Origin: Schmidtea polychroa | Taxonomy: Eukaryota | Length of the DNA stretch: 64,000 nucleotides | Reading direction: 5' to 3' | Assembly (NCBI GenBank): GCA_044892525.1 | Contig: CM097885.1 | Location: forward strand, 29,576,001 to 29,640,000 | Part shown: piece by piece, positions 12,151-56,882 of the stretch | Layout: each line of letters begins with the position of its first letter | How positions within the stretch are numbered: the stretch's first letter is position 1 | Position numbers and translations under genes: made by a program | Notes under the pieces: generated by a model | What the model was told of the DNA's origin: nothing | Databases searched by the model: none | The model's input: the letters and a program-made list of their open reading frames with translations, nothing else

Positions 12151-13199
12151 TTTATATTAATACTATTATTATTAATAATACCTTGATAAAATTTAAATTT
12201 TGTAAAATATGTTTTGCTCTTGGATTGTAATTTTATTGTCTGTTATTTTACAATAAATTGTTATAAAATGCCTTTCCAAAGACATAGTTTTAAATTTTAT
12301 CTGTATACAAAGATATTCGAAATTTAACAATAAAAGTTGTATTGTTTAACAGATAATTGAAGATAATTAATCTGAATAATGTAATTCAAAACGAATATAT
12401 TTTAAGACGAAAATAATGTATTCAGAATTCAATGCAAAGTCGCCACTATTGAAAAATTGAACAAAGCATGTGAAAAATTTGTAAAGAATCAAAATTTCCA
12501 TTAATAATCCTGAATTTTATTTAAATTTAGGATTTTAAATATTTTTCCAAATAATTTTTAAATTAAAAATATTTATTTTATATTTTTCTATTAATTATAC
12601 TAATTAGTAAAGTTTTAATTGCATACAATTTGATCAATTCAGCTTTTAATTTAATTGATTTAAATGGTTTTTAATTATTTATTAATTTTTAAATTTGTAT
12701 ATCTATCCAATAATTTTAAAGATATTTTGAAAATATTGTTTGATTTTAAAAATAAAATTATTTTAGTCAAATTTAAAATTTAAAATATTAATAATAATAA
12801 AATCTGCTTCAATTTAATTAATTTTGATGCTCTTTTCACCATTTATTAATTTTTAAATTTATATATTTCTTCAATAATTTGTATAAATTATGTCATTTTT
12901 ATTTCATTAGATTTTTTTCCTAAAATAAATAAAGAATTATATTTTATGATTTAAGCCGATCTTGGAATTTTATTTTCAATCTCTGATTTGGTCAATTCGT
13001 TGAAGTTGTCAGATTTACAAACCAGTAGGTTCGAAAAAAGTGAATGAAAAACAACACTCCAATTATTTGCAAATTTCACCAACTTTCCTTTCAAATATTC
13101 TTTAACAATTTATATACTTCAACAATTCATTTGGACCACAAAAAGACCAAAGACTAAAATTTTAAATTTGAAATAAATTGAAAAGCCCTGTGGTGAAAA

Positions 13200-23537: not shown

Positions 23538-24189
23538 CTGGAATTTAGCAATCTCCTTCCAGAAAATACATTTCTATCTTTCTTTTATTTCCTTTTTCTT
23601 AATTCTCATTTGTTATAAATATAATATAATGATATACTTTCTTTTCCTGAACTTTTTTAAAAATTTTATTTAAAATTAAAATTAGAATAAAATAAATATT
23701 ATTTAAAACTCAAAATGACAAATACTAAAATCTTTAAATTTTTTGAAGTTTCTATAATTAGCTTCTAGAAGCCTAATATAATGTTTCAAAATATTTTAAA
23801 ATAAAGCCTCCAATAACTATTTATATACGCTATTTAAATATTTCAATAAATGTGTCAATTTTGATTTTTAAATCCTATCTTTTGAAAGTATACTTCCTAA
23901 AGTTTTCTATATTATTTTAATTATTACTTTTTTTTAAATTTATTATATTTTTTATATATTATCAGTTATTCTCAAGGTCAATGACAACAGATCAAATTGA
24001 TGATTTCATTGATTTCTTCTTTAGTATTGATTTTTGGCCGTCTGTTTATGATGAGAATTGCTTTTTTGAATCTGACATTTTTCTTTTGGATGTTTCCATT
24101 TGCTATGATTTCGATTGAAATTTTTTTTGAAATTTTTTGAAATTTTTTCAAGTGGCACGGATATCAAAACCCCACTTGGATATTTGAAA

Positions 24190-25740
24190 ATGAATAAAAC
24201 TAATATTTACATGATTTTACCCAGCAATAGCTCTCCTTTAATCCATCCAAATAACAATGCTAGTAAATTTATTGTCGAACTTCAAAATCAAATCTATTTA
24301 AATGGTAGTTGGGAAGTGTCCTTGTTGGATTTTACATTTGTATACAATCTCTTTCCGTTTTACAGCAAATCCAAGATTGAATATACCAAAATGGAATCAG
24401 TATCAAAAATTGTTAAAGTGAAGATGATTTAAGACAGCTATGAAATGGTCAATCAAACAAATACAAATGTGATAATATATGTTGAAGAAAGATTGCTATT
24501 TGTACTTTCAATGTTTGAAGCGACCATTTCAATTTTTATTTGAAACTTTAACTGATGCAAAACGTCTAGGATTTACTCTAGTGCGTAAATTTGATCTTGA
24601 TGCTCGTCTCAAAACTGATGCTCTTCCCAAAACTGATGCTCTATTCAAATTTCAACTCTTGTATAACAAAGCAGTTGAGCATGTCTATACATTTTAAGAT
24701 TATTTAACAAAACATTGTGCAAATATTTTCGCTGTTGTTGAATTAGACAAATATTTTAAATTTCAAATGAATCCGACTGTTGACCAAATGAAATTTGACT
24801 CTTATTTGGTAAAAACATTAGGATTATCTAAAGAAACGTATATACAAAACTTAAAAGTTAACGAAGGAACATCGAAACCAAAAATAATTAAACTTCATCA
24901 ACAAATGTTCATTTAAAATATTGTTGAATCCATATTTGTTGGTGATGTTAGTGTTCCTCTATTGAAATCAGTATAGATTGGAAAACATGAGCAGGATGAA
25001 GTCGTTCAAATATCAATTGAAAATCCTATGTATTTATCTGTTTCAACATCATGCATAAACAATATAGAAATTAATATACGTGATGATAGCAGAAAAGTGA
25101 TAAAATTTCTAAAAGATTCAAAAACTCATTTGACTTTACATTTTCGCAAAGTGAATGACTTATCGTGATATTGTATCGCTTTATAGTGGTAGTCAAAATG
25201 GTGGAGAATTACCATATTTTATTTGTAAACAATATGGATCCGGATGGTTCCAAAAAATTGGAAGGTTTTAACTTCCCATACTTAAAAAGATTAGTTCTTT
25301 TGGCATGAAAACAGCAAAGGATGTGATAATGAAAGATCAAAAAATTCTTCCAACATTAAAAAGACATGCAATAGATGAAATTGGGAAATTGATACCTGGT
25401 GTAGCAAAAAGTTCCAAACCAAATGAAACTAAAAAACCTTCACCACCACCACCAATACAAAAACTAACACCACAACAAATTCTGAATAAACGACGAAGAT
25501 ATAGTATAAACAAAAGATTGAAAGGTCGTGGAACAATATTTCAAAATAATAAAGATCCGGCAAAACTGAATTGTGTATTTTTGATCGTCCATCTCCACAA
25601 GTAGTAATTGAAAATGGAATATTTGAAGATGTATTTCCCATGAATTCAATTACTGATTCGAGAAATGATGTTGAATTTTTTATTAATGGTTCACAGACTG
25701 AATATTTAGATTTGAATGATATTCTATTATCAATTCAATA
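24190..25740 (+). pseudogene. Decayed Polinton fragment: minor capsid, core protein and start of major capsid
   Basis: YMILPSNSS..NNASKF and NIEINIRDD..LTLHFRK parallel 33487-34491. SQNGGELPYF..QYGSGW parallels 34484. KTELCIFDRPSPQVVIENG..VEFFINGSQTEYLDLND resembles the Polinton MCP N-terminus. Multiple stops. Confidence 0.85.
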
Positions 25741-26221
25741 CTCAAGTTTTCTTTTCGTCTCTCTTCCAACTGTTTTTCTGCTTTTCAACAATTTATTTTA
25801 AATCTTCTTGTAAATTTAAATCTCTCGCAAATTTCTTTCGTCGTAAATTTTTCCAACATCTCTCCTTGTTTGTGTTCAGTTTTTATACCTTGCCATCTGA
25901 TAGCACTTATTGATAATGCATTCATTTTTCTTCACCTGTTCTATTGGGCACTCTGTTATCTCTGACAGCTGTCGAGATATGAATTTTTTGACAATCCTAT
26001 CTCTTAGATTCCCCATTTCCTTTATCTCGAATAGGTCATCGAGATAATAAGATAATTTAAACTGTGTTTTGCTTTTGTTGCGTTTGTACTTGTTAATAAG
26101 GAATGACCTTCTTTTATTTAATTGTCTGCTTTTATTGATTTTCTTCTGTTTACTTCTCATTTTTCGATTTTTTTCTTTCACTCCAATTTCACTGAGTTCG
26201 AGAACAACACCCCATCCATGT
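25740..26221 (-). pseudogene. Basic ORF remnant, possibly a Penelope ORF N-terminus; target site of the palindromic Polinton
   Basis: Lys/Arg-rich frame MRSKQKKINK..RRSFLINKYK. No diagnostic catalytic motif. Confidence 0.3.
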
Positions 26222-26344
26222 ATCATTAGTAGATGGATTGGGCACCGCTGGCACAGGGCACCGCTAGCACAGTACCCCCCCCCCTCCCCCCCCCCCGTCG
26301 GTAAGATTTTCAAAAATATTCTAAGTCTAAAAGTACATTTTTTT

Positions 26345-27260
26345 TTCAAGGTCAAATTTAAACAAAGACATATGACTCATCAAGGTCATTGAAACAAAGA
26401 CCATGAGTCATCCTATGACTCATAAAATTTTTCAAGGTCATTTAAACAAAGACCATGACTCATCCGATGACTCATCAAGGACATTTTCAAGGTCATATGA
26501 CTCATACTATGACTCATCAAGGTCAAAAAAATTTCCTCAAGGTCATTTAAACAAAGACCATGACTCATCCGATGACTCATCAAGGACATTTTCAAGGTCA
26601 TATGACTCATACTATGACTCATCAAGGTCAAAAAAAATTTCTCAAGGTCATTTAAACAAAGACCATGACTCATCAAGGTCATTTTCAAGGTCATATGACT
26701 CATCCTATGACTCATATGCCCTTGAAAAATTTTTTCAAGGTCATATGACTCATCCTATGACTCATCAAGGTCATTGAAACAAAGACCATGACTCATAGTA
26801 TGACTCATATGACCCTGAAAAATTTTTTTCAAGGTCATATGACTCATAGTATGACTCATCAGGGGCATTTTCAAGGTCGTATGACTCATAGCATGACTCA
26901 TTTGACCTTGAAAAATTTTTTTCAAGGTCATATGACTCATAATATGACTCATCAAGGTCATTTTCAAGGTCATATGACTCATAATATGACTCATCAAGGT
27001 CATTTTCAAGGTCATATGACTCATAGTATGACTCATTTGACCTTGAAAAAATTTTTCAAGGTCATATGTCTCATCCTATGACTCATCAAGGTCATTCTCA
27101 AGGTCATATGACTCATCCGATGACTCATCAAAATTTTCAAGGTCATTTTCAAGGTCATCTGAGTCATCCTATGACTCATCAAGGTCATTTTCAAGGTCAC
27201 ATGACTCATCCAAGGTTATTCCCAAGGTCATATGAGTCATCGCGATGACTCATCAAGGTC
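26345..27260. promoter_or_regulatory. Subterminal array of ATGACTCAT, TCAAGGTCA and AAACAAAG motifs (left arm)
   Basis: Dozens of shuffled copies read directly. They match AP-1, NR5A/ERR extended half-site and Fox/Sox-like consensus. Function is inferred. Confidence 0.6.
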
Positions 27261-27417
27261 ATATTATTATTTTTAAAAAATATTATTATTTTTATTATTA
27301 TTTTTAAAAATATTATTATTTTATTTTTAATTTTTTCAAAGTTCCCGCCAACGAAAATTAATAATCGATAGCTCATTTTAAAGCTCAATCCAAGACCTTT
27401 CGAATGAGCCATATATC

Positions 27418-27466
<49 letters not shown>

Positions 27467-27482
27467 CATTATTATTATTATA

Positions 27483-27543
<61 letters not shown>
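27418..27543. repeat. (ATT)n tract in left arm (longer mirror at 40358-40522)
   Basis: Direct reading. Confidence 0.95.
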
Positions 27544-27676
27544 GTATTAATCTATATACACCGAGTCTATATACTTTGAGTCTATCTGACAAAATATTTT
27601 GTCCCCCTATGGGTAATGCTCACAAGGGTACTGGTCACGCTCAACAAATCAACAAATCAACAAAACATACATTTAT

Positions 27677-28177
27677 TTAAACAATAAAATAATGTAAAAT
27701 TAACAAAGGTAAACTAAATATTGATGTACTACTATTCGCAGCAATATTGTTAGAAATTGGTAACGTTGAATTGATTTTCAGATATTCTATTGATCCTTTG
27801 ATTGTTTGAATTTCTCTTAATAATAATTCAATCTTTTTTAACAAATAATCATGCTTCTTATCAATAATCTTCATATTCTTTTTATTTTCAGTAATAGAGT
27901 TATTGAAAACCTCAATATGATCAATCAATTTAATTTTTATATTTTGTATATATTCAAATGTTAGTTCATAACTGTTTTCTAAATTCTCCAATCTTTGAGA
28001 TATTCTTTTTCCTGGATGCTTTGACCATTTTGGTTTATCGAGAATATATAAAATATCCATCAACTTGGCTGTATTCGGACAAACACATATTGATTTATTA
28101 AAAGACTCCACCGTTATTGTTGTATTGTGTGAGCACACACTCGTTATAATAATTAGCAATATGAATAGAGTTTTCAT
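27677..28177 (-). CDS. 166-aa putative secreted / GPI-anchored coiled-coil glycoprotein
   Basis: Signal peptide MKTLFILLIIITSVCS, several NxS/T sequons, heptad-rich middle, small-residue linker and hydrophobic C-terminus with no cytoplasmic tail. Confidence 0.7.
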   Translation of the reverse strand: MKTLFILLIIITSVCSHNTTITVESFNKSICVCPNTAKLMDILYILDKPKWSKHPGKRISQRLENLENSYELTFEYIQNIKIKLIDHIEVFNNSITENKKNMKIIDKKHDYLLKKIELLLREIQTIKGSIEYLKINSTLPISNNIAANSSTSIFSLPLLILHYFIV

Positions 28178-28282
28178 GGTGTATCAAATCAAAACCTTTC
28201 TTTTACATTTATAGTCTATCAACCAATCAAAATCATCCGGTATTAGTATAAATAAAACATCATATTTTAAATTATTGTAAAA

Positions 28283-28803
28283 ATGTCTCAATTTATGGAA
28301 AATCTTTTAAGAGAACTCGTCAACAGGAATATTATGGAAAGCCTATGTTTCCTGGTCGATCGGACCGAAAAGATTATAGAAGGTAATCACATTGATTATG
28401 ACGATGTGATCAATTCTGATTGTCTCGAAACCAAAAAATTCTATTTTAATAGAATTTTTAACTGTCTATGCGACGATCAGATGAAGTGGACCCGAATACT
28501 AGTAGGGTTCGCTTATATGAAAATAATAATCCAAAGAAGTCTATGGGACTCAGAGCACTATTATCAGTGGTCTCAAGAAGTAATACTTTTATAATTTATA
28601 TTTTATTAATATTTATTTTCTAGATAATCAAGTCAAAGTTTCAACCATGGATTGAAGCCAATGGCGGATGGGGAGTACTCAATCAACTCGCCAGAAATGC
28701 AAAAGAAATAGACGATCAGAAAAGAAAATTTAAAAACTATGTAAAACTTGCAACAGGTGTTGCTATTTTGTATATTTTAACCAGATTTTTAAATAAAAAT
28801 TAA
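28283..28803 (+). CDS. Bcl-2 family protein, 158 aa, two exons (28283-28579, 28624-28803)
   Basis: BH1-like KWTRILVGFAY. 44-nt GT..AG intron. Exon 2 gives BH2 WIEANGGW and a C-terminal hydrophobic anchor LATGVAILYILTRF. Confidence 0.85.
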
Positions 28804-28862
28804 TATAGTTATTTTTGTTTGATTTTTAAATAAATTTACAAACACTAATTAACTAAGATTTA

Positions 28863-29240
28863 TTAATTAACACATTCGCAGTCGTCATCTCCAAATTTCA
28901 TTATATTTTCAACGACATGATCAATACAATCATTCGTAATATTATCTTTAGATTCATCTTTAGGTTCCTCTATAGGTTCCTCTATAGGTTCATAGATTTC
29001 CTCTTGAGTTTCTTCCTCATCAATTTCTTGAGTTTCTTCCTCATCATCAAATCCTGTATCTTGACTCTCAACTAACCAGCCGATATTTAAGGCATTTGTA
29101 ATAGATAATATATCCTCCATTTTCACACCAGATATTTCTGCTAACTTTTCCAACAAAAAGTTGATTAAAAATTCTAAATAATAAATAATTCGGTAATTAA
29201 TTAATTAATCATGTTAACCTTTTTCTACAGTCATTTTCAT
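28863..29240 (-). CDS. Acidic ~110-aa protein, two exons (intron 29174-29218)
   Basis: ATG exon MKMTVEK joined in frame by a 45-nt GT..AG intron. EEETQEI and EEP repeats. Confidence 0.6.
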
Positions 29241-29369
29241 CACTTTAAAACTAAATTATAAGTTTGTTTATAGATTTTCTTTGTTAAATTTGCATGTCAT
29301 TTGCATTTATGTTGCAATTAATAAAGAGAAAAAAAACAAATCTGACTAATACATTTATTAAATATAACA

Positions 29370-29780
29370 TTAAAATATTTGTGAAAGTCTAGCAGACATA
29401 ATTTTCCAAATAGGAGAATATACATCATTATTATCAACTTTATATCCCTGGATTGCAATTGTTATATACCAATTTTCATTTTCTTTGAAAGCGATTTCAT
29501 CAAAGGAATCATAAAATCTTGCATATTTATTGTTGAACCATGCATGTTGATTACACGATAGATTCGAATCTATCCGTTTAAAAACATCATCAATAGTTTT
29601 GACATCAATCATTGAAAGCGTGCCGGATAAGAATTCAAATTTAGTTGGAATTAGCTTGACTGGTGCAACCAATTTCATATTGATTTCTTCTTTCAAAAAA
29701 TACATTTTGTAGTTGTGGAACATTTGAACTGGTTGTACCATTTCTTTAGGTTTTTCGGTGCTTGAAATTTTCTTGGTCAT
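29370..29780 (-). CDS. 136-aa unknown protein, possibly OB-fold ssDNA-binding
   Basis: Clean ATG ORF with CCAAT and TATA upstream. The beta-rich C-terminus WYITIAIQGY..SPIWKIMSARL is only suggestive. Confidence 0.6.
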   Translation of the reverse strand: MTKKISSTEKPKEMVQPVQMFHNYKMYFLKEEINMKLVAPVKLIPTKFEFLSGTLSMIDVKTIDDVFKRIDSNLSCNQHAWFNNKYARFYDSFDEIAFKENENWYITIAIQGYKVDNNDVYSPIWKIMSARLSQIF

Positions 29781-30140
29781 CGTGAATAATGAATAAATTT
29801 AAATGTTACAGGGTTTTTATACCTTTGACTCATGCCTATCAACCAATCAGATTATAGCATGTCTTTGTTTAAATTGCATTCAAAATGCATTGATGTTGCA
29901 TTGTCACATGTTCTATTTACAGATTTATTATTAATGTTTAAATTATTACATGTTTTGATATATGTACAGATTTATTATTAATATGTTTCATTATTATTAA
30001 TGTTTTTACTATTATTACTATTCATATTTCTATTACTATTATTATTATTATTACTATTATTATTATTACTATTATTATTTCAAATATAAAACACAATAAA
30101 ACACAATAAAAAAGATAAAACACAATAAAAAATACATTTA

Positions 30141-30554
30141 TTAATAACCCAAATCTACAATCTTGGAGTAGTGAAACCTTCTCAGAGTTTTCACTAACTC
30201 CCATTCGACATATCGCCGATATCGATCGGCGCAACATGAGCATCCGATGATGCACTGGTACTCTGGCTCCATTTGTTTGATGGTTCTGTTAATCTTTATA
30301 TCCCACAGAAACTGGTGAAATACATCCATGATTCGAATTTGAGTCGCATAGAATATCAGATCTGGAATGATCTCAGGTTCGCGATCCTTGATAATTTCAA
30401 TAATTTGAGGATAATAATATTTTATCCTTTTTATCATAACTTCTAAATATTTCTCTAAAATAATAAATAGTAAATAATGTGAAAAAAAAATTTTAAATTT
30501 ACCGGAATCGTCGATATCTTTCATGAGGGTTGCAGAGCTTGGTAATTTGTACAT
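30141..30554 (-). CDS. Unknown protein with CxxxCxCC motif, probable 48-nt intron (30455-30502)
   Basis: ATG at 30554. In-frame T-rich GT..AG segment. QCIIGCSCCADR near the C-terminus. Confidence 0.6.
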   Translation of the reverse strand: MYKLPSSATLMKDIDDSGKFKIFFSHYLLFIILEKYLEVMIKRIKYYYPQIIEIIKDREPEIIPDLIFYATQIRIMDVFHQFLWDIKINRTIKQMEPEYQCIIGCSCCADRYRRYVEWELVKTLRRFHYSKIVDLGY

Positions 30555-30627
30555 AGTGTTGAAAAAATGAATTCTAAACAAAAACCGTTTGTTTAAATCA
30601 ATCAATAACCAATTAGAAATTAACCAA

Positions 30628-31065
30628 TTAGAAATCGACCAATGAAATTATCTCATTTCGAACATTGTCAACAAATTCTCTATACTCCAAATTTCTCAAC
30701 CCCAACATGACAACCTTTCCACTAGGAAACACGTTGACACATATAGGGTTATATTTTAATAGTCTTAGTGCCGGAAACAATTCCGGTTCAAACATACAAT
30801 CACATTTTTTCGACATGTTATATAGATTGATACTATGTCCCATATCCATAGTAACGGTAATTGATTGGATTTTAATATTATTTATTCGATATTGTAATTT
30901 ATTAATATCCAAAGGTTTCTTACATCCCATGATTCTGCATTTACCAGTCTTGAAAAATATTATCGGATATTTCCCACTTCTATCGATAATTTGCTGGGGT
31001 TTCCCTGGTGGGAACCTCATATTCGATACATCAAAATTTCCTCGATAATTTATATTTGCTAACAT
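30628..31065 (-). CDS. TATA-box-binding-protein-like, 145 aa
   Basis: Two TBP repeats: IIFFKTGKCRIMG and KIQSITVTMD..INL..FEPELFPAL..VNVFPSGKVVMLG (TBP has LIFxSGKxVxTG and YEPELFPGL). Confidence 0.85.
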   Translation of the reverse strand: MLANINYRGNFDVSNMRFPPGKPQQIIDRSGKYPIIFFKTGKCRIMGCKKPLDINKLQYRINNIKIQSITVTMDMGHSINLYNMSKKCDCMFEPELFPALRLLKYNPICVNVFPSGKVVMLGLRNLEYREFVDNVRNEIISLVDF

Positions 31066-31164
31066 TATTAAATCATTTATGAAAATTAGTCTTTATATAC
31101 AAATTGAGCACGAGTTCATTAAATCATCGAATATAAACAAATACACATTTATAAAATATTTGAA

Positions 31165-31791
31165 ATGGAATTAAGAAATGATGCTGTATACCAAATCGTT
31201 GGTCCGAGTGGTAGTGGAAAAACATTATTTGTTTGTAAATTACTAAAATCCAATTTATTCAAATCAAAATTCAACAGGATTTATTGGCATAGGGGTGCTG
31301 ATGAAGAACATGGATTAACTCAATCAAGTTTCTGTAAATTAAAAAACATGAAAATAGTAAAGGGATTCGATAAAAACTGGTCCAGCCGATTAAAGAAAGG
31401 CGATGTCATTATTATCGATGATTTGTATCAAGAAGCTAATAAAGAAAAAGATTTTAATAATTTATTTACAAAGATTAGCAGACATGTCGGTGTAACAGTT
31501 ATTTTCATAACTCAAAATCTATTTCATCAAGGTGGGGCACATCGAACACGTAATTTAAATGTACAATATTTAGTCATTTTCAAGAATCCTAGAGATGCAA
31601 CAGTGATTGATTTTCTTGCACGTCAAGCATACCCTAACAATCGTAATTTTCTTATCAGTGCATTTCAAGATGCTACAAAAATACCTCATGGATATATATT
31701 TCTTGATTTCACACAACAATGTCCCGATGATTTACGTGTAAAAACAGATATTTTCAACCCAAAAGGTGCCATGGTTTATAAACAAAGTTGA
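31165..31791 (+). CDS. Polinton packaging ATPase (A32/FtsK-like)
   Basis: Walker A GPSGSGKT, Walker B IIIDDL, SRH..VIFITQNLF, FKNPRD. Confidence 0.95.
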   Translation: MELRNDAVYQIVGPSGSGKTLFVCKLLKSNLFKSKFNRIYWHRGADEEHGLTQSSFCKLKNMKIVKGFDKNWSSRLKKGDVIIIDDLYQEANKEKDFNNLFTKISRHVGVTVIFITQNLFHQGGAHRTRNLNVQYLVIFKNPRDATVIDFLARQAYPNNRNFLISAFQDATKIPHGYIFLDFTQQCPDDLRVKTDIFNPKGAMVYKQS

Positions 31792-31809
31792 AAACCTCTA
31801 TGAATAATA

Positions 31810-32343
31810 ATGTTTCTAAAAGCAAGGGTGAAAAATATTAGGAAATTAAGAAAAGGTATTAGAAAGACTATTAAAGTTCCAAAGGTTCCACCAACAACTA
31901 GTTATACACCATCTAAAAAACTTGTAACTAAAAATTTCTCTGCAATGAATCTTATTTCGAAAAATCCTAAACCTAAACGTAAAACCCGTAAAACCCGTAA
32001 AACCGGTAAAAAAGTAGTTAAAAATCATCGCAGTTTTCCATTTTTTAATGCATTGTTAAAGGCTCCGAGTATGAAAAGAATGAATATATTGCAATCATTC
32101 CCAAATTTTGTTGTCGATGATTTACTCAATATTATACTTAAAGTAGTCAAAGGCAAAATTAAAATCAGTAAATCAAAAAAGCATTTATTGAGCAAACATA
32201 GGAAACCTTTATTATCTTTAGTAAATAATAAAAATCGTAAGCAAATGAGGAAAATTATATATAAACAACAAGGTGGATTTATTGGTGCCTTGATACCTCT
32301 GGCATTATCATTATTAGGTGGAGTTGTAGGAAATCAATCATAA
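31810..32343 (+). CDS. Basic virion core-like protein with QGG cleavage site and amphipathic tail
   Basis: Lys/Arg-rich. Ends KQQGGFIGALIPLALSLLGG, an adenain-type xxGG site followed by a hydrophobic helix. Confidence 0.75.
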   Translation: MFLKARVKNIRKLRKGIRKTIKVPKVPPTTSYTPSKKLVTKNFSAMNLISKNPKPKRKTRKTRKTGKKVVKNHRSFPFFNALLKAPSMKRMNILQSFPNFVVDDLLNIILKVVKGKIKISKSKKHLLSKHRKPLLSLVNNKNRKQMRKIIYKQQGGFIGALIPLALSLLGGVVGNQS

Positions 32344-32346
32344 ACA

Positions 32347-32574
32347 ATGGGTGCTAATCCTTCATTGCCCGACATTAAATTTAATTTTAAATCTTCTTGT
32401 TGTAATGGAGAAGATTTGGACGAACCCAGAAGACGAAGCCGGTTTCGGTGGAGTGGCAAAATTAAACAAAAGAGTTCCGAATTCGAAAAAAGAAACCCAG
32501 AAGTGGTTATCAGATCAGCTTGCGTACAGTTTGAACAAACCAATGCGGAAAAGATTTCCAACAAGAGCGTATAA
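32347..32574 (+). CDS. 75-aa putative myristoylated protein overlapping the integrase 5' end
   Basis: ATG 3 nt after the previous stop. MGANPS fits MGxxxS. CC pair at residues 18-19. Confidence 0.5.
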   Translation: MGANPSLPDIKFNFKSSCCNGEDLDEPRRRSRFRWSGKIKQKSSEFEKRNPEVVIRSACVQFEQTNAEKISNKSV

Positions 32575-32792
32575 AACATTTGGTATTGACGATTTATGGC
32601 AAATGGATTTGATGGAGATGATACCATATTCGAAAATTAACAATGGGAATAAATATATTTTAACATGTATTAATGTATACAGCAGGTTTACACGAGCAAT
32701 ACCAGTCAAGGCAAAATCTGCAGAAGAAATGTCCAAGGCAATTAATATTTTATTTAAAGATGGACATCCTAATAATTTGCAAACAGATTTAG

Positions 32793-32860
<68 letters not shown>

Positions 32861-33490
32861 TTAGGTAAAGAATTCTACAATAGCAAAGTTAAGCAAATCC
32901 TCGATAAACTGAAAATAAATCATTACTCGGTACATTCTCAATACAAAGCTGCCCATGTTGAAAGATTTAATCGAACATTGAGAGATAGATTAAAGAAATT
33001 GTTCGTGCATCAAGGTAATAAAAAATGGGTAAATGCTTTACCGAAAATAATAACAAGTTATAATCATTCATCACATCGAGGACTGAATGGATTGAGACCG
33101 GTTGATATTACATCAAAAACACCATTATCTAAAAAATCTGTAAAAATTGCAAAACCTAAATATAAAGTCGGTGACCATGTTAGAATTAGTAAAATTAGTG
33201 CATCACCATTTATTAAAAATTTTGATACAAATTGGAGTGATGAAGTCTTTGTAATTTCAAAAATAAATACTAAACAGAATCCTGTAATGTATGTCATCAA
33301 AGACAATGATAATAATATTGTACAGGGGAAATATAATGAGCAGGAATTACAAGTCATTCCTCCCCCAAAAGTATTTAGAATTCAAAAAATATTGAAAACT
33401 AAAAAGGTCGGTAAGGATAAACAATACTATATCAAATGGCACGGTTATCAAAACCCGTCATGGATATCGTCAAAAGACCTAGTAAAATGA
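32405..33490 (+). CDS. Retroviral-type (rve) integrase with C-terminal chromodomain; intron 32793-32864
   Basis: WQMDLMEM, spliced LQTDLGKEF, VERFNRTL, YKVGDHVRIS, IQKILK..YYIKWHGY..SW. The poly-Ile stretch is a GT-(ATT)n-AG intron. Confidence 0.93.
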
Positions 33491-34491
33491 ATTTTTATAT
33501 TATTTTACCTAGCAATAGCTGTCCACTTATTCATCCAGATAATAAAGCCAGCAAATTCAGGGTCAATCTTCAAAATCCGATATATTTGGATAATAGCTGG
33601 GAAGTTGCTCTGTTGGATTTTACATTTGTATACCAAGCCTTTCCATTTTATAGTAAGGCTAAAATTGGATACAAAAAGAATGAGTGGCAGGATAGATTAT
33701 TGTCTATGATCATTGATAATGCAGATGATGAAGTTCGGTTGTCTAACTCAACTGATCCAGCTGTGAAAATGTATATTAACCATTCATATATAGTAGTTGA
33801 ATGTAAACATTATCCTTTTACTGTAAAATTTGATAGTTTGGAAATGGCAAAACGATTGGAATTAAAAACCCAAAGTCATAAAGTTCTTTCCGATAAATTC
33901 ACTATGCTACGACCGGGATATTCCAAAACTGTACAGCGATTTGAACCAATTTTATTTACAGTTTCATATCCGGGTATAACGTCTGGTACATTTGAGTTCA
34001 AAGATAATTTATACATTTCGAAATTGGATGAATTACAGACATATTTAAAACAAAGTGGTTTATTTAAATCATTGGAAATATCAGACAGATTCAAATTCAG
34101 TTTGAATCCCGAATTTACTGAAATTACTTTTGATGCAAATCTAATAAAAACATTAGGATTATCAAAAGCAACATATGCTCAAGATGATCAAGGTACCCTA
34201 GCTCCGAAAATAATTAAACTTCACCAACAAATGTTCATCTATAGTAATATTGTTGATCCTGTAATTGTTGGCGATTCTTTGGTCCCACTCCTGAAATCTG
34301 TTTGGATTGAAAAATATGAACATGATGAAGTAGTCAATATAAATATCGATAATCCCATGTATTTACCTGTGTCAACCTCATGTATAAACAATATAGAAAT
34401 AAATATACGTGATGATTCTGGTAAATTAATCGCATTTCCAAAAGATTCAAAAACTCATTTAACATTACATTTTCGTAAAGTAGATGGCTAA
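33487..34491 (+). CDS. Polinton minor capsid (penton) protein, single copy
   Basis: MNFYIILPSNS..NKASKF..WEVAL and FIYSNIV..VGDSLVPLL..PMYLPV..IEINIRDDSG..LTLHFRK. Confidence 0.9.
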   Translation: MNFYIILPSNSCPLIHPDNKASKFRVNLQNPIYLDNSWEVALLDFTFVYQAFPFYSKAKIGYKKNEWQDRLLSMIIDNADDEVRLSNSTDPAVKMYINHSYIVVECKHYPFTVKFDSLEMAKRLELKTQSHKVLSDKFTMLRPGYSKTVQRFEPILFTVSYPGITSGTFEFKDNLYISKLDELQTYLKQSGLFKSLEISDRFKFSLNPEFTEITFDANLIKTLGLSKATYAQDDQGTLAPKIIKLHQQMFIYSNIVDPVIVGDSLVPLLKSVWIEKYEHDEVVNINIDNPMYLPVSTSCINNIEINIRDDSGKLIAFPKDSKTHLTLHFRKVDG

Positions 34492-34700
34492 TTCGGATAT
34501 TATAAGTATGTATAGTGGTAGCCAATCTGGCGGTGAATTACCATATTTTATTGGGAAACAGTACGGATCAGGATGGTTGAGAACAATTGGTAGATTTGCA
34601 CTTCCTATTCTTAAACGTATTGGTAGTTTTGGTATGAAAACTGCTAAAGATGTTATTATGAATGAACAGAAAATATTACCATCTCTAAAATCAAATGCTT
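34484..34700 (+). pseudogene. Core protein gene truncated by the fold-back junction
   Basis: QSGG and QYGSG cleavage-like sites and amphipathic WLRTIGRFALPILKRIG. The sequence turns into its own reverse complement at 34698. A longer homolog lies at 25155-25550. Confidence 0.85.
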
Positions 34701-34831
34701 TAGCAGTTTTCATACCAAAACTACCAATACGTTTAAGAATAGGAAGTGCAAATCTACCAATTGTTCTCAACCATCCTGATCCGTACTGTTTCCCAATAAA
34801 ATATGGTAATTCACCGCCAGATTGGCTACCA
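34516..34831. repeat. Central 134-bp hairpin with 48-nt loop
   Basis: 34516-34649 is the reverse complement of 34698-34831. Confidence 0.95.
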
Positions 34832-35029
34832 ACTTGTTATTATTTTCGGTAAAGCATTTACCCATTTTTTATTACCTTGATGCACGAACAATTTCTTTAA
34901 TCTATCTCTCAATGTTCGATTAAATCTTTCAACATGGGCAGCTTTGTATTGAGAATGTACCGAGTAATGATTTATTTTCAGTTTATCGAGGATTTGCTTA
35001 ACTTTGCTATTGTAGAATTCTTTACCTAA

Positions 35030-35109
<80 letters not shown>

Positions 35110-35497
35110 CTAAATCTGTTTGCAAATTATTAGGATGTCCATCTTTAAATAAAATATTAATTGCCTTGGACATTTCTTCTGCAGATTTTGCCTTGACTGG
35201 TATTGCTCGTGTAAACCTGCTGTATACATTAATACATGTTAAAATATATTTATTCCCATTGTTAATTTTCGAATATGGTATCATCTCCATCAAATCCATT
35301 TGCCATAAATCGTCAATACCAAATGTTTTATACGCTCTTGTTGGAAATCTTTTCCGCATTGGTTTGTTCAAACTGTACGCAAGCTGATCTGATAACCACT
35401 TCTGGGTTTCTTTTTTCGAATTCGGAACTCTTTTGTTTAATTTTGCCACTCCACCGAAACCGGCTTCGTCTTCTGGGTTCGTCCAAATCTTCTCCAT
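34831..35497 (-). pseudogene. Mirror integrase copy, 3'-truncated; intron 35026-35109
   Basis: Matches the left copy up to LPKIITS. Intron is 84 nt versus 72 nt. Confidence 0.9.
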
Positions 35498-35555
35498 TAC
35501 AACAAGAAGATTTAAAATTAAATTTAATGTCGGGCAATGAAGGATTAGCACCCAT
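35328..35555 (-). CDS. Mirror copy, putative myristoylated protein
   Basis: Identical translation to 32347-32574. Confidence 0.5.
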   Translation of the reverse strand: MGANPSLPDIKFNFKSSCCNGEDLDEPRRRSRFRWSGKIKQKSSEFEKRNPEVVIRSACVQFEQTNAEKISNKSV

Positions 35556-35558
35556 TGT

Positions 35559-36092
35559 TTATGATTGATTTCCTACAACTCCACCTAATAATGATAATGC
35601 CAGAGGTATCAAGGCACCAATAAATCCACCTTGTTGTTTATATATAATTTTCCTCATTTGCTTACGATTTTTATTATTTACTAAAGATAATAAAGGTTTC
35701 CTATGTTTGCTCAATAAATGCTTTTTTGATTTACTGATTTTAATTTTGCCTTTGACTACTTTAAGTATAATATTGAGTAAATCATCGACAACAAAATTTG
35801 GGAATGATTGCAATATATTCATTCTTTTCATACTCGGAGCCTTTAACAATGCATTAAAAAATGGAAAACTGCGATGATTTTTAACTACTTTTTTACCGGT
35901 TTTACGGGTTTTACGGGTTTTACGTTTAGGTTTAGGATTTTTCGAAATAAGATTCATTGCAGAGAAATTTTTAGTTACAAGTTTTTTAGATGGTGTATAA
36001 CTAGTTGTTGGTGGAACCTTTGGAACTTTAATAGTCTTTCTAATACCTTTTCTTAATTTCCTAATATTTTTCACCCTTGCTTTTAGAAACAT
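35559..36092 (-). CDS. Mirror copy, basic core-like protein
   Basis: Identical translation to 31810-32343. Confidence 0.75.
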   Translation of the reverse strand: MFLKARVKNIRKLRKGIRKTIKVPKVPPTTSYTPSKKLVTKNFSAMNLISKNPKPKRKTRKTRKTGKKVVKNHRSFPFFNALLKAPSMKRMNILQSFPNFVVDDLLNIILKVVKGKIKISKSKKHLLSKHRKPLLSLVNNKNRKQMRKIIYKQQGGFIGALIPLALSLLGGVVGNQS

Positions 36093-36110
36093 TATTATTC
36101 ATAGAGGTTT

Positions 36111-36737
36111 TCAACTTTGTTTATAAACCATGGCACCTTTTGGGTTGAAAATATCTGTTTTTACACGTAAATCATCGGGACATTGTTGTGTGAAATCAAG
36201 AAATATATATCCATGAGGTATTTTTGTAGCATCTTGAAATGCACTGATAAGAAAATTACGATTGTTAGGGTATGCTTGACGTGCAAGAAAATCAATCACT
36301 GTTGCATCTCTAGGATTCTTGAAAATGACTAAATATTGTACATTTAAATTACGTGTTCGATGTGCCCCACCTTGATGAAATAGATTTTGAGTTATGAAAA
36401 TAACTGTTACACCGACATGTCTGCTAATCTTTGTAAATAAATTATTAAAATCTTTTTCTTTATTAGCTTCTTGATACAAATCATCGATAATAATGACATC
36501 GCCTTTCTTTAATCGGCTGGACCAGTTTTTATCGAATCCCTTTACTATTTTCATGTTTTTTAATTTACAGAAACTTGATTGAGTTAATCCATGTTCTTCA
36601 TCAGCACCCCTATGCCAATAAATCCTGTTGAATTTTGATTTGAATAAATTGGATTTTAGTAATTTACAAACAAATAATGTTTTTCCACTACCACTCGGAC
36701 CAACGATTTGGTATACAGCATCATTTCTTAATTCCAT
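36111..36737 (-). CDS. Mirror copy, packaging ATPase
   Basis: Identical translation to 31165-31791. Confidence 0.95.
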   Translation of the reverse strand: MELRNDAVYQIVGPSGSGKTLFVCKLLKSNLFKSKFNRIYWHRGADEEHGLTQSSFCKLKNMKIVKGFDKNWSSRLKKGDVIIIDDLYQEANKEKDFNNLFTKISRHVGVTVIFITQNLFHQGGAHRTRNLNVQYLVIFKNPRDATVIDFLARQAYPNNRNFLISAFQDATKIPHGYIFLDFTQQCPDDLRVKTDIFNPKGAMVYKQS

Positions 36738-36836
36738 TTCAAATATTTTATAAATGTGTATTTGTTTATATTCGATGATTTAATGAACTCGTGCTCAATT
36801 TGTATATAAAGACTAATTTTCATAAATGATTTAATA

Positions 36837-37274
36837 ATGTTAGCAAATATAAATTATCGAGGAAATTTTGATGTATCGAATATGAGGTTCCCACCAGGGA
36901 AACCCCAGCAAATTATCGATAGAAGTGGGAAATATCCGATAATATTTTTCAAGACTGGTAAATGCAGAATCATGGGATGTAAGAAACCTTTGGATATTAA
37001 TAAATTACAATATCGAATAAATAATATTAAAATCCAATCAATTACCGTTACTATGGATATGGGACATAGTATCAATCTATATAACATGTCGAAAAAATGT
37101 GATTGTATGTTTGAACCGGAATTGTTTCCGGCACTAAGACTATTAAAATATAACCCTATATGTGTCAACGTGTTTCCTAGTGGAAAGGTTGTCATGTTGG
37201 GGTTGAGAAATTTGGAGTATAGAGAATTTGTTGACAATGTTCGAAATGAGATAATTTCATTGGTCGATTTCTAA
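36837..37274 (+). CDS. Mirror copy, TBP-like protein
   Basis: Identical translation to 30628-31065. Confidence 0.85.
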   Translation: MLANINYRGNFDVSNMRFPPGKPQQIIDRSGKYPIIFFKTGKCRIMGCKKPLDINKLQYRINNIKIQSITVTMDMGHSINLYNMSKKCDCMFEPELFPALRLLKYNPICVNVFPSGKVVMLGLRNLEYREFVDNVRNEIISLVDF

Positions 37275-37347
37275 TTGGTTAATTTCTAATTGGTTATTGA
37301 TTGATTTAAACAAACGGTTTTTGTTTAGAATTCATTTTTTCAACACT

Positions 37348-37761
37348 ATGTACAAATTACCAAGCTCTGCAACCCTCATGAAAGATATCGACGATTCCGG
37401 TAAATTTAAAATTTTTTTTTCACATTATTTACTATTTATTATTTTAGAGAAATATTTAGAAGTTATGATAAAAAGGATAAAATATTATTATCCTCAAATT
37501 ATTGAAATTATCAAGGATCGCGAACCTGAGATCATTCCAGATCTGATATTCTATGCGACTCAAATTCGAATCATGGATGTATTTCACCAGTTTCTGTGGG
37601 ATATAAAGATTAACAGAACCATCAAACAAATGGAGCCAGAGTACCAGTGCATCATCGGATGCTCATGTTGCGCCGATCGATATCGGCGATATGTCGAATG
37701 GGAGTTAGTGAAAACTCTGAGAAGGTTTCACTACTCCAAGATTGTAGATTTGGGTTATTAA
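37348..37761 (+). CDS. Mirror copy, CxxxCxCC protein (intron 37400-37447)
   Basis: Identical translation to the left copy. Confidence 0.6.
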   Translation: MYKLPSSATLMKDIDDSGKFKIFFSHYLLFIILEKYLEVMIKRIKYYYPQIIEIIKDREPEIIPDLIFYATQIRIMDVFHQFLWDIKINRTIKQMEPEYQCIIGCSCCADRYRRYVEWELVKTLRRFHYSKIVDLGY

Positions 37762-38121
37762 TAAATGTATTTTTTATTGTGTTTTATCTTTTTTATTGTG
37801 TTTTATTGTGTTTTATATTTGAAATAATAATAGTAATAATAATAATAGTAATAATAATAATAATAGTAATAGAAATATGAATAGTAATAATAGTAAAAAC
37901 ATTAATAATAATGAAACATATTAATAATAAATCTGTACATATATCAAAACATGTAATAATTTAAACATTAATAATAAATCTGTAAATAGAACATGTGACA
38001 ATGCAACATCAATGCATTTTGAATGCAATTTAAACAAAGACATGCTATAATCTGATTGGTTGATAGGCATGAGTCAAAGGTATAAAAACCCTGTAACATT
38101 TAAATTTATTCATTATTCACG

Positions 38122-38532
38122 ATGACCAAGAAAATTTCAAGCACCGAAAAACCTAAAGAAATGGTACAACCAGTTCAAATGTTCCACAACTACAAAATGT
38201 ATTTTTTGAAAGAAGAAATCAATATGAAATTGGTTGCACCAGTCAAGCTAATTCCAACTAAATTTGAATTCTTATCCGGCACGCTTTCAATGATTGATGT
38301 CAAAACTATTGATGATGTTTTTAAACGGATAGATTCGAATCTATCGTGTAATCAACATGCATGGTTCAACAATAAATATGCAAGATTTTATGATTCCTTT
38401 GATGAAATCGCTTTCAAAGAAAATGAAAATTGGTATATAACAATTGCAATCCAGGGATATAAAGTTGATAATAATGATGTATATTCTCCTATTTGGAAAA
38501 TTATGTCTGCTAGACTTTCACAAATATTTTAA
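38122..38532 (+). CDS. Mirror copy, 136-aa unknown protein
   Basis: Identical translation to 29370-29780. Confidence 0.6.
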   Translation: MTKKISSTEKPKEMVQPVQMFHNYKMYFLKEEINMKLVAPVKLIPTKFEFLSGTLSMIDVKTIDDVFKRIDSNLSCNQHAWFNNKYARFYDSFDEIAFKENENWYITIAIQGYKVDNNDVYSPIWKIMSARLSQIF

Positions 38533-38660
38533 TGTTATATTTAATAAATGTATTAGTCAGATTTGTTTTTTTCTCTTTATTAATTGCAACATAAATGCAA
38601 ATGACATGCAAATTTAACAAAGAAAATCTATAAACAAACTTATAATTTAGTTTTAAAGTG

Positions 38661-39038
38661 ATGAAAATGACTGTAGAAAAAGGTTAACATGATTAATTAA
38701 TTAATTACCGAATTATTTATTATTTAGAATTTTTAATCAACTTTTTGTTGGAAAAGTTAGCAGAAATATCTGGTGTGAAAATGGAGGATATATTATCTAT
38801 TACAAATGCCTTAAATATCGGCTGGTTAGTTGAGAGTCAAGATACAGGATTTGATGATGAGGAAGAAACTCAAGAAATTGATGAGGAAGAAACTCAAGAG
38901 GAAATCTATGAACCTATAGAGGAACCTATAGAGGAACCTAAAGATGAATCTAAAGATAATATTACGAATGATTGTATTGATCATGTCGTTGAAAATATAA
39001 TGAAATTTGGAGATGACGACTGCGAATGTGTTAATTAA
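38661..39038 (+). CDS. Mirror copy, acidic protein (intron 38683-38727)
   Basis: Identical translation to the left copy. Confidence 0.6.
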
Positions 39039-39097
39039 TAAATCTTAGTTAATTAGTGTTTGTAAATTTATTTAAAAATCAAACAAAAATAACTATA

Positions 39098-39618
39098 TTA
39101 ATTTTTATTTAAAAATCTGGTTAAAATATACAAAATAGCAACACCTGTTGCAAGTTTTACATAGTTTTTAAATTTTCTTTTCTGATCGTCTATTTCTTTT
39201 GCATTTCTGGCGAGTTGATTGAGTACTCCCCATCCGCCATTGGCTTCAATCCATGGTTGAAACTTTGACTTGATTATCTAGAAAATAAATATTAATAAAA
39301 TATAAATTATAAAAGTATTACTTCTTGAGACCACTGATAATAGTGCTCTGAGTCCCATAGACTTCTTTGGATTATTATTTTCATATAAGCGAACCCTACT
39401 AGTATTCGGGTCCACTTCATCTGATCGTCGCATAGACAGTTAAAAATTCTATTAAAATAGAATTTTTTGGTTTCGAGACAATCAGAATTGATCACATCGT
39501 CATAATCAATGTGATTACCTTCTATAATCTTTTCGGTCTGATCGACCAGGAAACATAGGCTTTCCATAATATTCCTGTTGACGAGTTCTCTTAAAAGATT
39601 TTCCATAAATTGAGACAT
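39098..39618 (-). CDS. Mirror copy, Bcl-2 family protein (exons 39618-39322, 39277-39098)
   Basis: Same motifs. One substitution, DRTEK versus DQTEK. Confidence 0.85.
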
Positions 39619-39723
39619 TTTTACAATAATTTAAAATATGATGTTTTATTTATACTAATACCGGATGATTTTGATTGGTTGATAGACTATAAATGTAAAA
39701 GAAAGGTTTTGATTTGATACACC

Positions 39724-40224
39724 ATGAAAACTCTATTCATATTGCTAATTATTATAACGAGTGTGTGCTCACACAATACAACAATAACGGTGGAGTCTTT
39801 TAATAAATCAATATGTGTTTGTCCGAATACAGCCAAGTTGATGGATATTTTATATATTCTCGATAAACCAAAATGGTCAAAGCATCCAGGAAAAAGAATA
39901 TCTCAAAGATTGGAGAATTTAGAAAACAGTTATGAACTAACATTTGAATATATACAAAATATAAAAATTAAATTGATTGATCATATTGAGGTTTTCAATA
40001 ACTCTATTACTGAAAATAAAAAGAATATGAAGATTATTGATAAGAAGCATGATTATTTGTTAAAAAAGATTGAATTATTATTAAGAGAAATTCAAACAAT
40101 CAAAGGATCAATAGAATATCTGAAAATCAATTCAACGTTACCAATTTCTAACAATATTGCTGCGAATAGTAGTACATCAATATTTAGTTTACCTTTGTTA
40201 ATTTTACATTATTTTATTGTTTAA
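39724..40224 (+). CDS. Mirror copy, secreted / GPI-anchored protein
   Basis: Identical translation to 27677-28177. Confidence 0.7.
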   Translation: MKTLFILLIIITSVCSHNTTITVESFNKSICVCPNTAKLMDILYILDKPKWSKHPGKRISQRLENLENSYELTFEYIQNIKIKLIDHIEVFNNSITENKKNMKIIDKKHDYLLKKIELLLREIQTIKGSIEYLKINSTLPISNNIAANSSTSIFSLPLLILHYFIV

Positions 40225-40357
40225 ATAAATGTATGTTTTGTTGATTTGTTGATTTGTTGAGCGTGACCAGTACCCTTGTGAGCATTACCCATAGGGGGAC
40301 AAAATATTTTGTCGGATAGACTCAAAGTATATAGACTCGGTGTATATAGATTAATAC

Positions 40358-40522
<165 letters not shown>

Positions 40523-40677
40523 GATATATGGCTCATTCGAAAGGTCTTGGATTGAGCTTTAAAATGAGCTATCGATTATTAATTTTCGTTGGCGGGAACT
40601 TTGAAAAAATTAAAAATAAAATAATAATATTTTTAAAAATAATAATAAAAATAATAATATTTTTTAAAAATAATAAT

Positions 40678-41332
40678 ATGACCTTGATGAGTCATCGCGA
40701 TGACTCATATGACCTTGGGAATGACCTTGGATGAGTCATGTGACCTTGAAAATGACCTTGATGAGTCATAGGATGACTCAGATGACCCTGAAAATGACCT
40801 TGAAAATTTTGATGAGTCATCGGATGAGTCATATGACCTTGAGAATGACCTTGATGAGACATAGGATGAGTCATATGACCTTGAAAAAAATTTTCAAGGT
40901 CAAATGAGTCATACTGTGAGTCATATGACCTTGAAAATGACCTTGATGAGTCATATTATGAGTCATATGACCTTGAAAATGACCTTGATGAGTCATATTA
41001 TGAGTCATATGACCTCGAAAAAATTTTTCAGGGCCAAATGAGTCATACTATGAGTCATACGACCTTGAAAATGACCTTGATGAGTCATACTATGAGTCAT
41101 GGTCTTTGTTTCAATGGCCTTGATGAGTCATAGGATGAGTCATATGACCTTGAAAAATTTTTTTCAAGGGCATATGAGTCATATGACCTTGAAAATGACC
41201 TTGATGAGTCATCGGATGAGTCATGGTCTTTGTTTAAATGCCCTTGAAAAATTTTATGAGTCATAGGATGACTCATGGTCTTTGTTTCAATGACCTTGAT
41301 GAGTCATATGTCTTTGTTTAAATTTGACCTTG
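40678..41332. promoter_or_regulatory. Subterminal motif array (right arm, shorter)
   Basis: Reverse-complement array ATGAGTCAT / TGACCTTGA with fewer units than the left arm. Confidence 0.6.
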
Positions 41333-42259
41333 AAAAAAAAATGTACTTTTAGACTTAGAATATTTTTGAAAATCTTACCGACGGGGGGGGGGTACTGTGC
41401 TAGCGGTGCCCTGTGCCAGCGGTGCCCAATCCATCTACTATCATTATTTCCCCAATCATTTTACTCATTTAACAATTATTTTGGTTTTATTATTTGGTTA
41501 TCCTCAACAACCCTATATTGTAAAACTAATATTACTAAATGAATTTTAAAGTTATAATATTGCATATTAATGTTAAAGGTCAAATATCATATAAGGAATT
41601 AATTTATTCGTGCGTTACGTAATCTAATTCAATTACTTGGTGATTACGGAGGCTCTACAATTAAAATAATAGTACAGTTGTTATTCAAATATAAATTTTA
41701 AAATGACAACGCCAAAAATGTACTTACATCGATGACTCTAGGAGATTGAATAAAAAAACAAGAGATTCTCTACTAAATGCTAGGAAACTCTTGGATATGA
41801 AGACTAATAGATATTATGGCAAATGCACTAAAGAAACTTAAAATGAATACAATAAATTGATATTATATCCCCATACATATTGTTAATTCACACTTCCCAT
41901 CGACACTAACATGTTTAACACTTACAATTTCATTTTCTGAAGTGTTTTCAATAATGGAATGTAATGTATGACACCCAGTTTCATAGAATAACTTTACTTC
42001 TATTATCAAGAAAGTCAATAATTTGATATTATATAAAAACGTAACCTGAGTGTTGACACAGCACAGTAAAAATTCATTTTAACTTTTAATAGATGTAACA
42101 ATTACACAAAACATCTGGTTATTCTGCAAATTCCTTTCTGGACAATATCGTGAGACATGATTCGCTCAGCATCGATTCAATATTATCGGTTTATCTTTAT
42201 TATTTTGCTTACATTTTTTTCCAGGCTTAAATTTCGCGAGTTTTGGTGTTTCGGTGTCG

Positions 42260-44476: not shown

Positions 44477-44614
44477 AGTAGGTAGATAGTGGCCTACGGG
44501 AACAATTACCCCCCCCCGGGGGGGGGGGGGGGGGGTTTGTTCCCAAATTTTTATTACGCAATTGTTCCCAACTCATTTTTTTGCTTTCAGGGATTTTTGG
44601 TCCAAATTTTTTTT

Positions 44615-45690: not shown

Positions 45691-45699
45691 TAAATTTTT

Positions 45700-48130: not shown

Positions 48131-48190
<60 letters not shown>

Positions 48191-56822: not shown

Positions 56823-56882
<60 letters not shown>

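Follow-up and report, generated by a model that had tools for sequence, protein, structure and literature searches.

A candidate two-exon gene in both arms of a Maverick/Polinton derivative

The window, by which we mean the whole 64,000-nt stretch of Schmidtea polychroa DNA that was analysed, is AT-rich eukaryotic sequence, and at 28283..28803 of its plus strand lies a predicted gene in two exons. Exon 1 (28283..28579, plus strand; 99 codons) encodes BH1, helix 5 and helix 6 as far as its midpoint, and it opens with what we take, from motif patterns, to be a BH4-like start and a degenerate BH3 region. A 44-nt intron candidate in phase 0 (28580..28623, plus strand; GT-AG borders, 9% G+C) separates it from exon 2 (28624..28803, plus strand; 59 codons and a stop), which would supply the end of helix 6, BH2, a basic linker and an anchor. 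Joined in phase 0, the two exons give a predicted product of 158 aa, and the coordinates, the 44-nt intron and the product length of this recomputed model agree exactly with those proposed in a first-pass annotation of the same DNA. The two motifs named there are also in place: in BH1, KWTR stands for NWGR (28484-28495, plus strand, exon 1), with Trp and Arg retained and Gly changed to Thr, and WIEANGGW (28648-28671, plus strand, exon 2) matches positions 86-100 of the Pfam model PF00452 as well as the BH2 of Bcl-xL, an assignment that depends on splicing. Over six frames of the whole window, the W-x4-GGW word makes up two of eight GGW matches and is confined to this gene and its inverted copy. 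A tail anchor had been claimed too, and hydropathy does find a hydrophobic C-terminus in exon 2 (about 28747-28791, plus strand), though a short one, with a best Kyte-Doolittle mean of 1.81 over 15 residues and 1.19 over 19, basic residues on its flanks and just 12 uncharged residues before an Arg; we grade this putative tail anchor as present but marginal. A candidate poly(A) signal, AATAAA, lies 26 nt 3' of the stop (28829..28834, plus strand).

Read without splicing, the frame that opens at ATG 28283 runs to a stop at 28594 and encodes 103 aa. Exon 2 contains no Met, and an in-frame stop that overlaps the acceptor AG closes its frame upstream, so that splicing is the only simple route by which exon 2 could be read. 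A second copy of the gene, missing from the first-pass annotation, is found on the minus strand of an inverted arm (39098..39618; exon 1 39618-39322, intron 39321-39278, exon 2 39277-39098). The two copies differ by one base, which changes one residue (Arg27 vs Gln), and exon 2 is intact in both.

Both copies belong to a near-palindromic element of 15,212 nt (26228..41439) with terminal inverted repeats and AGT-type, matching AGTAGATGG ends (AGTAGATGG..CCATCTACT), flanked by the 6-bp target duplication ATCATT (26222-26227 and 41440-41445); ends and duplication were judged by the Maverick/Polinton criteria set out in the available text of PMC8097293. The arm at 26228-33059 is mirrored at 41439-34831; where the arms bear genes they show three differences over 5,231 aligned nt, and the element as a whole is a pair of left arms with a unique interior of less than 2 kb between them. 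A short inverted piece of the last ORF lies at the right junction, near 34830. In both arms the Bcl-2-like gene sits between the left terminal repeat and the integrase. The other genes include a TBP-like gene (30628-31065, minus strand, with its mirror at 36837-37274, plus strand; PF00352, E=2.3e-15) arranged head to head with an A32-type packaging ATPase (31165..31791, plus strand; PF04665, E=3.6e-07), and an rve integrase with a chromodomain (32347..33490, plus strand, with its start at 32347 or 32405; PF00665, E=8e-06, and PF00385, E=0.0013). Divergent from the Bcl-2-like gene is a 166-aa ORF (27677-28177, minus strand) with weak coiled-coil Pfam matches only; read by eye, its start resembles a signal peptide and its middle a coiled coil, and its C-terminus is hydrophobic. 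Among the ORFs of 26228-41439 we found no protein-primed DNA polymerase B, major capsid protein or protease, and no relative of the neighbouring element's capsid gene lies within these bounds. Classified by its sequence features, among them the ends, the duplication, the rve integrase and the packaging ATPase, the element is a young non-autonomous Maverick derivative, and its near-palindromic form may be a misassembly of a high-copy family. The first-pass annotation had also placed the gene in a virus-like cycle, but this copy, which has no polymerase or major capsid gene, is unable to run such a cycle by itself.

The 105 nt between the Bcl-2-like gene and the 166-aa minus-strand gene (28178..28282) form a putative divergent promoter region with CCAAT at 28223 and TATAAATA at 28247-28254, the latter word being weak evidence when taken alone because TATAAAT[AG] is common in the AT-rich window. 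An ATAAAC word precedes the ATPase gene and its downstream neighbour, not the Bcl-2-like gene. Both terminal repeats carry tandem arrays, with 36 TGASTCA and 28 plus-strand YCAAGGYCA sites in the left repeat (26228..27400, plus strand) and 26 TGASTCA and 20 main-strand YCAAGGYCA sites in the right one (40501-41439). Outside the element these words occur four times and once, respectively, in the 26 kb to the left and are absent from the 22 kb to the right. We take TGASTCA to be AP-1-type and YCAAGGYCA to be NR5A-type sites, and the arrays could possibly serve as a stress-responsive enhancer.

Sequence comparisons point to a probable Bcl-2 family product

We scored exon 1 and exon 2 separately against 24,736 Pfam models. 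Exon 1 matched PF00452 with E=0.01 and 16.8 bits (residues 35-86 on model positions 12-66) and exon 2 with E=0.34 and 11.9 bits (residues 2-16 on positions 86-100), both below the curated cut-off of 31.4 bits. PF00452 was the sole Pfam family for each exon at E up to 1, and the exons fall on successive parts of the model in the right order. Three relatives in the protein collection are 97%, 62% and 67% identical to the exon-1 protein, and all four aligned exon-1 proteins match PF00452, the best relative reaching E=0.0008 and 20.4 bits with exon 1 alone. When exon 1 was compared with PDB sequences, A1/Bfl-1 ranked first (E=0.14 with the single sequence, E=0.033 with a four-sequence profile) with schistosome Bcl-2 proteins close behind, and exon 2 retrieved 46 chains at E up to 10, namely 45 of Bcl-xL and one named BCL-2 (best Bcl-xL E=0.074). 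In the alignment with A1, Trp69 and Arg71 fall on the Trp and Arg of NWGR and are invariant in all four sequences, and the hydrophobic helix 5 is in register. A language-model search of the ESM Atlas with exon 1 returned PF00452-bearing clusters in the top three places (score 0.91-0.93), and each of the ten best family-bearing matches shares the family or clan; the recognition value was 2030, under the 2300 mark. For exon 2 the same search gave no usable match.

Falcipain-2 scored equal to Bcl-2 proteins against exon 1 alone among the PDB sequences, a likeness that covers one stretch, has no Pfam support and is attributed to chance. A protein search at E up to 10 found no longer protein that includes exon 2, and no relatives were found in the metagenome contigs, in the phage collection or in the viral contigs scanned with the ATPase and TBP-like proteins. 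One viral contig candidate (L001) was set aside as a chance 9-residue match on a phage-like contig, inside an ORF that we presume from its motifs to be methyltransferase-like.

Fold models were made with AlphaFold2 from the exon-1 frame only, for the window protein and for one relative (P0002), and were poor (pLDDT 57, pTM 0.38); both models fuse the first two helices into one, and the exon products folded as a pair scored 0.01. With these exon-1 models of pLDDT 57, Foldseek returned nothing at E up to 0.001 from the PDB or the viral library, and VIA-align gave no Z of 8 or more. Bcl-2-fold chains made up 1/50, 3/50 and 3/50 of the VIA-align matches listed, never first and not above unrelated helical proteins. 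Against an exon-1 model of this quality, DPV022 was among the longest structural matches (Z 6.0, rmsd 5.5, 94 aligned), and Bcl-xL gave Z 5.2 and rmsd 5.1 with 97 aligned. DPV022 is described as a helix-swapped dimer in the available text of PMC11209288, and a helix-swapped dimer of the product here is, from these models, a lead only.

None of these tests is decisive singly, and it is the agreement of several weak ones that leads us to regard a Bcl-2 family origin and fold as very probable; the homology claimed by the first-pass annotation thus finds support in Pfam, in PDB sequences, in the ESM Atlas and in the relatives. That an unrelated small helical membrane protein resembles the family by chance is very improbable, for although no single match passes a strict threshold and the fold searches rank unrelated helical proteins first, the two exons match successive parts of one model among 24,736, all relatives match it too, and the language-model search agrees.

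The 44-nt tract has the features of an intron

Besides its GT and AG borders, the tract has a T-rich 3' end, with TATTAAT as a possible branch word, and a G+C content as low as its own occurs in just 6 of 4,038 44-mers drawn from nine coding stretches of the element. Both diverged relatives retain 10 of the 11 residues that lead up to the donor. Immediately beyond the same codon they break off, meeting a stop or AT-rich sequence and ending in 3 or 13 unrelated residues. After the conserved stretch P0003 goes on with Val and with codons rich in A and T, which is what a GT donor would give. In P0002 the conserved Glu is followed by Gly-Ile-Tyr, a misfit with a same-phase GT donor, and this Gly needs a donor shifted by one base or some other explanation. 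The junction is continuous with helix 6 of Bcl-xL, in that residue 103 of the exon-1 model corresponds to Bcl-xL 176 and residue 5 of exon 2 (the 104th) to 177, a soft check because the exon-1 model is poor and only the end points of the alignments are given.

Other ways of joining the exons fared poorly. Ten GT-AG pairs, the chosen one included, give at least 125 aa, and the six with earlier donors lose part of helix 5 or 6 and have 27-33% G+C. Three other acceptors paired with the 28580 donor lose Bcl-2-matched residues or the whole of BH2. A frameshift in place of an intron was rejected because the stop at the acceptor closes the exon 2 frame.

The tract is not the only one of its kind in the element. 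A scan of 12,781 nt of the element on both strands for AT-rich GT-YAG tracts of 35-80 nt, a filter chosen after the gene's intron had been seen, gave five matches, all on the coding strand and inside genes: both copies of the gene's intron, both copies of a 48-nt tract within a 137-aa ORF, and one 72-nt tract that belongs to the integrase. The 48-nt tract is AT-rich, GT-AG-bounded and in frame (30502-30455, minus strand, with its mirror at 37400, plus strand) and is a third intron candidate. The integrase tract is a GT-AG-bounded (ATT)n run in the catalytic core, 72 nt long at 32793-32864 (plus strand) and 84 nt long in the second integrase copy (35109-35026, minus strand), which the length limit of the scan left out; the TTTAGGTA word is repeated at both of its borders, and its sequence suggests an intron that arose when a microsatellite was inserted into a core Maverick gene.

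We consider removal of the 44-nt intron highly likely. It could instead be mostly retained or never spliced, leaving either the 103-aa exon-1 frame without BH2 and anchor as the product or a remnant that decays after an AT-rich insertion, and the recorded relatives, all of unspliced length (103, 104 and 112 aa), agree with this, as does the lack of a same-phase GT donor in P0002; nor did the protein collections searched over the spliced length of 158 aa, or the cluster representatives, contain a protein of that length. The three relatives, however, come from short ENA contigs of 500-738 nt, where gene calling that takes no account of introns could yield just such lengths. Both copies keep an intact exon 2 and the tract has a GT, an AG, a T-rich end and 9% G+C, all of which speak against retention, and a recent break would not explain why the diverged relatives change at the same codon. 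Retention is on this evidence improbable.

A pro-survival role is likely, with the BH1 glycine as the main doubt

We propose that host RNA polymerase II would transcribe the gene from the TATA/CCAAT promoter just inside the left terminal repeat, and that the host spliceosome would remove the 44-nt intron to give a compact 158-aa Bcl-2-fold protein. The C-terminal tail would anchor this product, most likely in the mitochondrial outer membrane, where it would bind only a few kinds of host pro-death partner (Bak/Bax-type or BH3-only proteins) and delay apoptosis while the element is active. Taken as a whole, the reading of the gene as a spliced, tail-anchored Bcl-2-fold accessory protein by which a Maverick/Polinton restrains host pro-death proteins is one that we favour by a modest degree. 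Given a spliced Bcl-2 fold, the anti-apoptotic direction is itself likely, because the best matches are pro-survival proteins, the BH3 region is degenerate and viral Bcl-2 proteins are generally pro-survival according to the available text of PMC11209288.

The main doubt about the pro-survival reading is the BH1 Gly of NWGR, which is Thr in all four aligned sequences. The available text of a review (PMC8998228) states that without this Gly the BH3 groove may be altered or put out of action and that family members with an altered BH1 Gly exist; with such members known, the Thr weakens the case for a canonical pro-survival protein, not that for membership of the Bcl-2 family. The product could thus be spliced and Bcl-2-folded, with an altered groove that does not bind BH3, and target a different host process, be it innate immune signalling, autophagy or mitochondrial shape, like some poxvirus Bcl-2-fold proteins. 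PMC8998228, in the text available, treats loss of the Gly as a sign of other function, and the presence of Thr in four of four sequences suggests that the change is kept and is not decay. We nevertheless judge a non-apoptotic role unlikely, since the BH1 Trp and Arg, BH2 and the tail anchor are all kept and since ORFV125, with the variant BH1 SPGR, still binds BH3 peptides, albeit more weakly, according to the available text of PMC9027176 and PMC11209288.

Far less probable is a pro-death effector or sensitiser that helps particles to exit the cell late in the cycle. In the register of the A1 alignment, the BH3-equivalent stretch contains no Gly and reads Val-Asp here and Ile-Asn and Val-Asn in the two diverged relatives, residues that we placed partly by the BH3 pattern as we take it to be. 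The absent Gly and the change of Asp to Asn in two relatives argue against a Bak/Bax-type killer, as do best matches to the pro-survival proteins A1 and Bcl-xL and a promoter with TATAAATA and not the ATAAAC word that precedes the ATPase gene and its downstream neighbour. In favour of a killer are Bak fragments among the weak PDB matches of the exon-1 profile (E 0.58-1.5) and, by our own reading, the hydrophobic spacing of a BH3 helix.

To return to the pro-survival reading, it can be extended speculatively. The lineage might have acquired a Bcl-2 gene that lacked the family's ancestral GGW intron, and a new host-type intron might then have arisen within the element as its genes more widely, the core integrase among them, became spliced; the product might be a minimal, helix-1-swapped dimer like the poxvirus proteins F1L and DPV022 with a narrowed groove; and the AP-1-type arrays might switch the gene on after stress or wounding. 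This combination is improbable as it stands. If the gene were stress-switched in this way, the many genomic copies, even replication-dead palindromes, would add a stress-inducible survival factor to the host.

Comparison with related elements and viral Bcl-2 proteins

The first-pass annotation had doubted the novelty of anti-apoptotic cargo in such elements, and rightly so, because Bcl2 homologs, alongside IAP homologs, have been observed in adintoviruses (Starrett et al. 2021, PMC8502044). Supplementary Fig. S2 of that paper, in the part available, carries three Bcl2 labels, one of them an Adintoc5:Bcl2 fusion. As likened by description, the adintovirus genes resemble ours in being Bcl-2-like accessory genes of an element with an rve integrase and a packaging ATPase; the gene here has a predicted intron, whereas the main text of PMC8502044, as available, makes no mention of splicing or of an intron in the Bcl2 genes. 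Buck et al. (PMC11071296, available text) write that the majority of adintoviruses associated with mammals seem to carry candidate oncogenes or anti-apoptotic homologs. Nematode Mavericks (Widen et al., 10.1101/2022.07.12.499685) are described in the available text as carrying intron-bearing cargo genes in the 2-5 kb that separate the left repeat from the integrase, the position occupied by the gene here. Their cargo differs, consisting of wasp proteases and krma kinases with no mention of "bcl" or "apopto" in that text, and their core genes are called intronless, whereas the integrase here has an intron-like tract.

The herpesvirus of turkeys gene vNr-13 (PMC7199394, available text) is close in architecture, with two exons and one intron, two inverted-repeat copies and a tail anchor, and in the past it too was miscalled by ORF finders. 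It is, however, 64% identical to the host gene and keeps NWGR and the host exon structure, whereas the gene here is highly diverged, reads WTR and has its intron away from the GGW boundary. Compared with A1/Bfl-1 and Bcl-xL, the best sequence matches of the exons, the product has the same order of BH1, BH2 and anchor but is shorter, its first two helices being joined by hardly any loop, and has Thr for the BH1 Gly. Cellular pro-survival Bcl-2 genes have a conserved coding intron right after the Trp of the BH2 GGW (PMC8998228, available text). The intron here follows codon 99, 16 codons upstream of the GGW Trp (residue 115), and none follows GGW, the frame running on into the anchor, which suggests that an old intron was lost and a new one gained.

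The first-pass annotation had drawn a parallel with adenovirus E1B-19K, which the available text of PMC11209288 presents as a small protein of Bcl-2 type that inhibits Bax/Bak and is encoded by a medium-sized DNA virus. The parallel stands as a plausible functional analogy and falls as family membership, in that neither exon, scored apart, nor any of the three relatives matched the E1B-19K family PF01691 at E up to 1. The ESM Atlas gave a 0.86 lead to a cluster with PF01691 in 20%. E1B-19K is described as having no GGW (PMC7199394, available text), whereas the gene here keeps it. A further likeness, again by description, is with the planarian Burro LTR retrotransposons (PMC6431247, available text), in which a BCL2-like domain is likewise carried by an invertebrate mobile element; there it lies inside the retrotransposon polyprotein and here it forms a separate two-exon gene. 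Introners have been reported in dinoflagellate Maverick-like elements (PMC11957031, available text), and intact vertebrate Mavericks are described as intronless (PMC8097293, available text). Among the matches listed in a literature search largely without subscription papers, we found no report of a spliced Bcl-2 gene in a Maverick, and the available texts of PMC11161782, PMC11131425, PMC8097293, PMC11071296 and 10.1101/2023.08.22.554363 make no mention of "bcl".

Overall, we read this as an accessory gene of a Maverick family that is Bcl-2-like and probably spliced, with a pro-survival role as the likeliest. Earlier papers have described Bcl2 cargo in such elements, Maverick cargo with introns and viral Bcl-2 genes that are spliced, and the gene does not change the field. 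It would add to the signs that Mavericks of animals, like viruses, have to control the death of their host cells, and it is a case in which ORF-only annotation misses a Maverick accessory gene. Its intron lies at a position not shared by the Bcl-2 family and is accompanied by two more intron-like tracts in the element, against the intronless state described for vertebrate Mavericks in the available text of PMC8097293. As a natural Gly-to-Thr variant of BH1, the protein also offers a usable test case for BH3-groove specificity.

Other features of the window

Directly to the left of the element, at 24100-25900, lies a degraded piece of a related Maverick with 75-79% DNA identity to the main element's 351-aa and 122-aa ORFs. 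To the left of this piece is a minus-strand ORF with reverse transcriptase and GIY-YIG domains (21926-23209), presumably Penelope-like by domain order, and at 11097-12154 there is an inverted repeat (about 460 nt, 89% identity) that may be a small non-autonomous DNA transposon. To the right of the element lies a double jelly-roll capsid gene (44081 to 61432) that belongs to a second Maverick family and contains a 16-kb, almost gene-free palindrome with AGTAG-type ends (44477-60532), and the integrase of this second family carries a PLA2-like domain.
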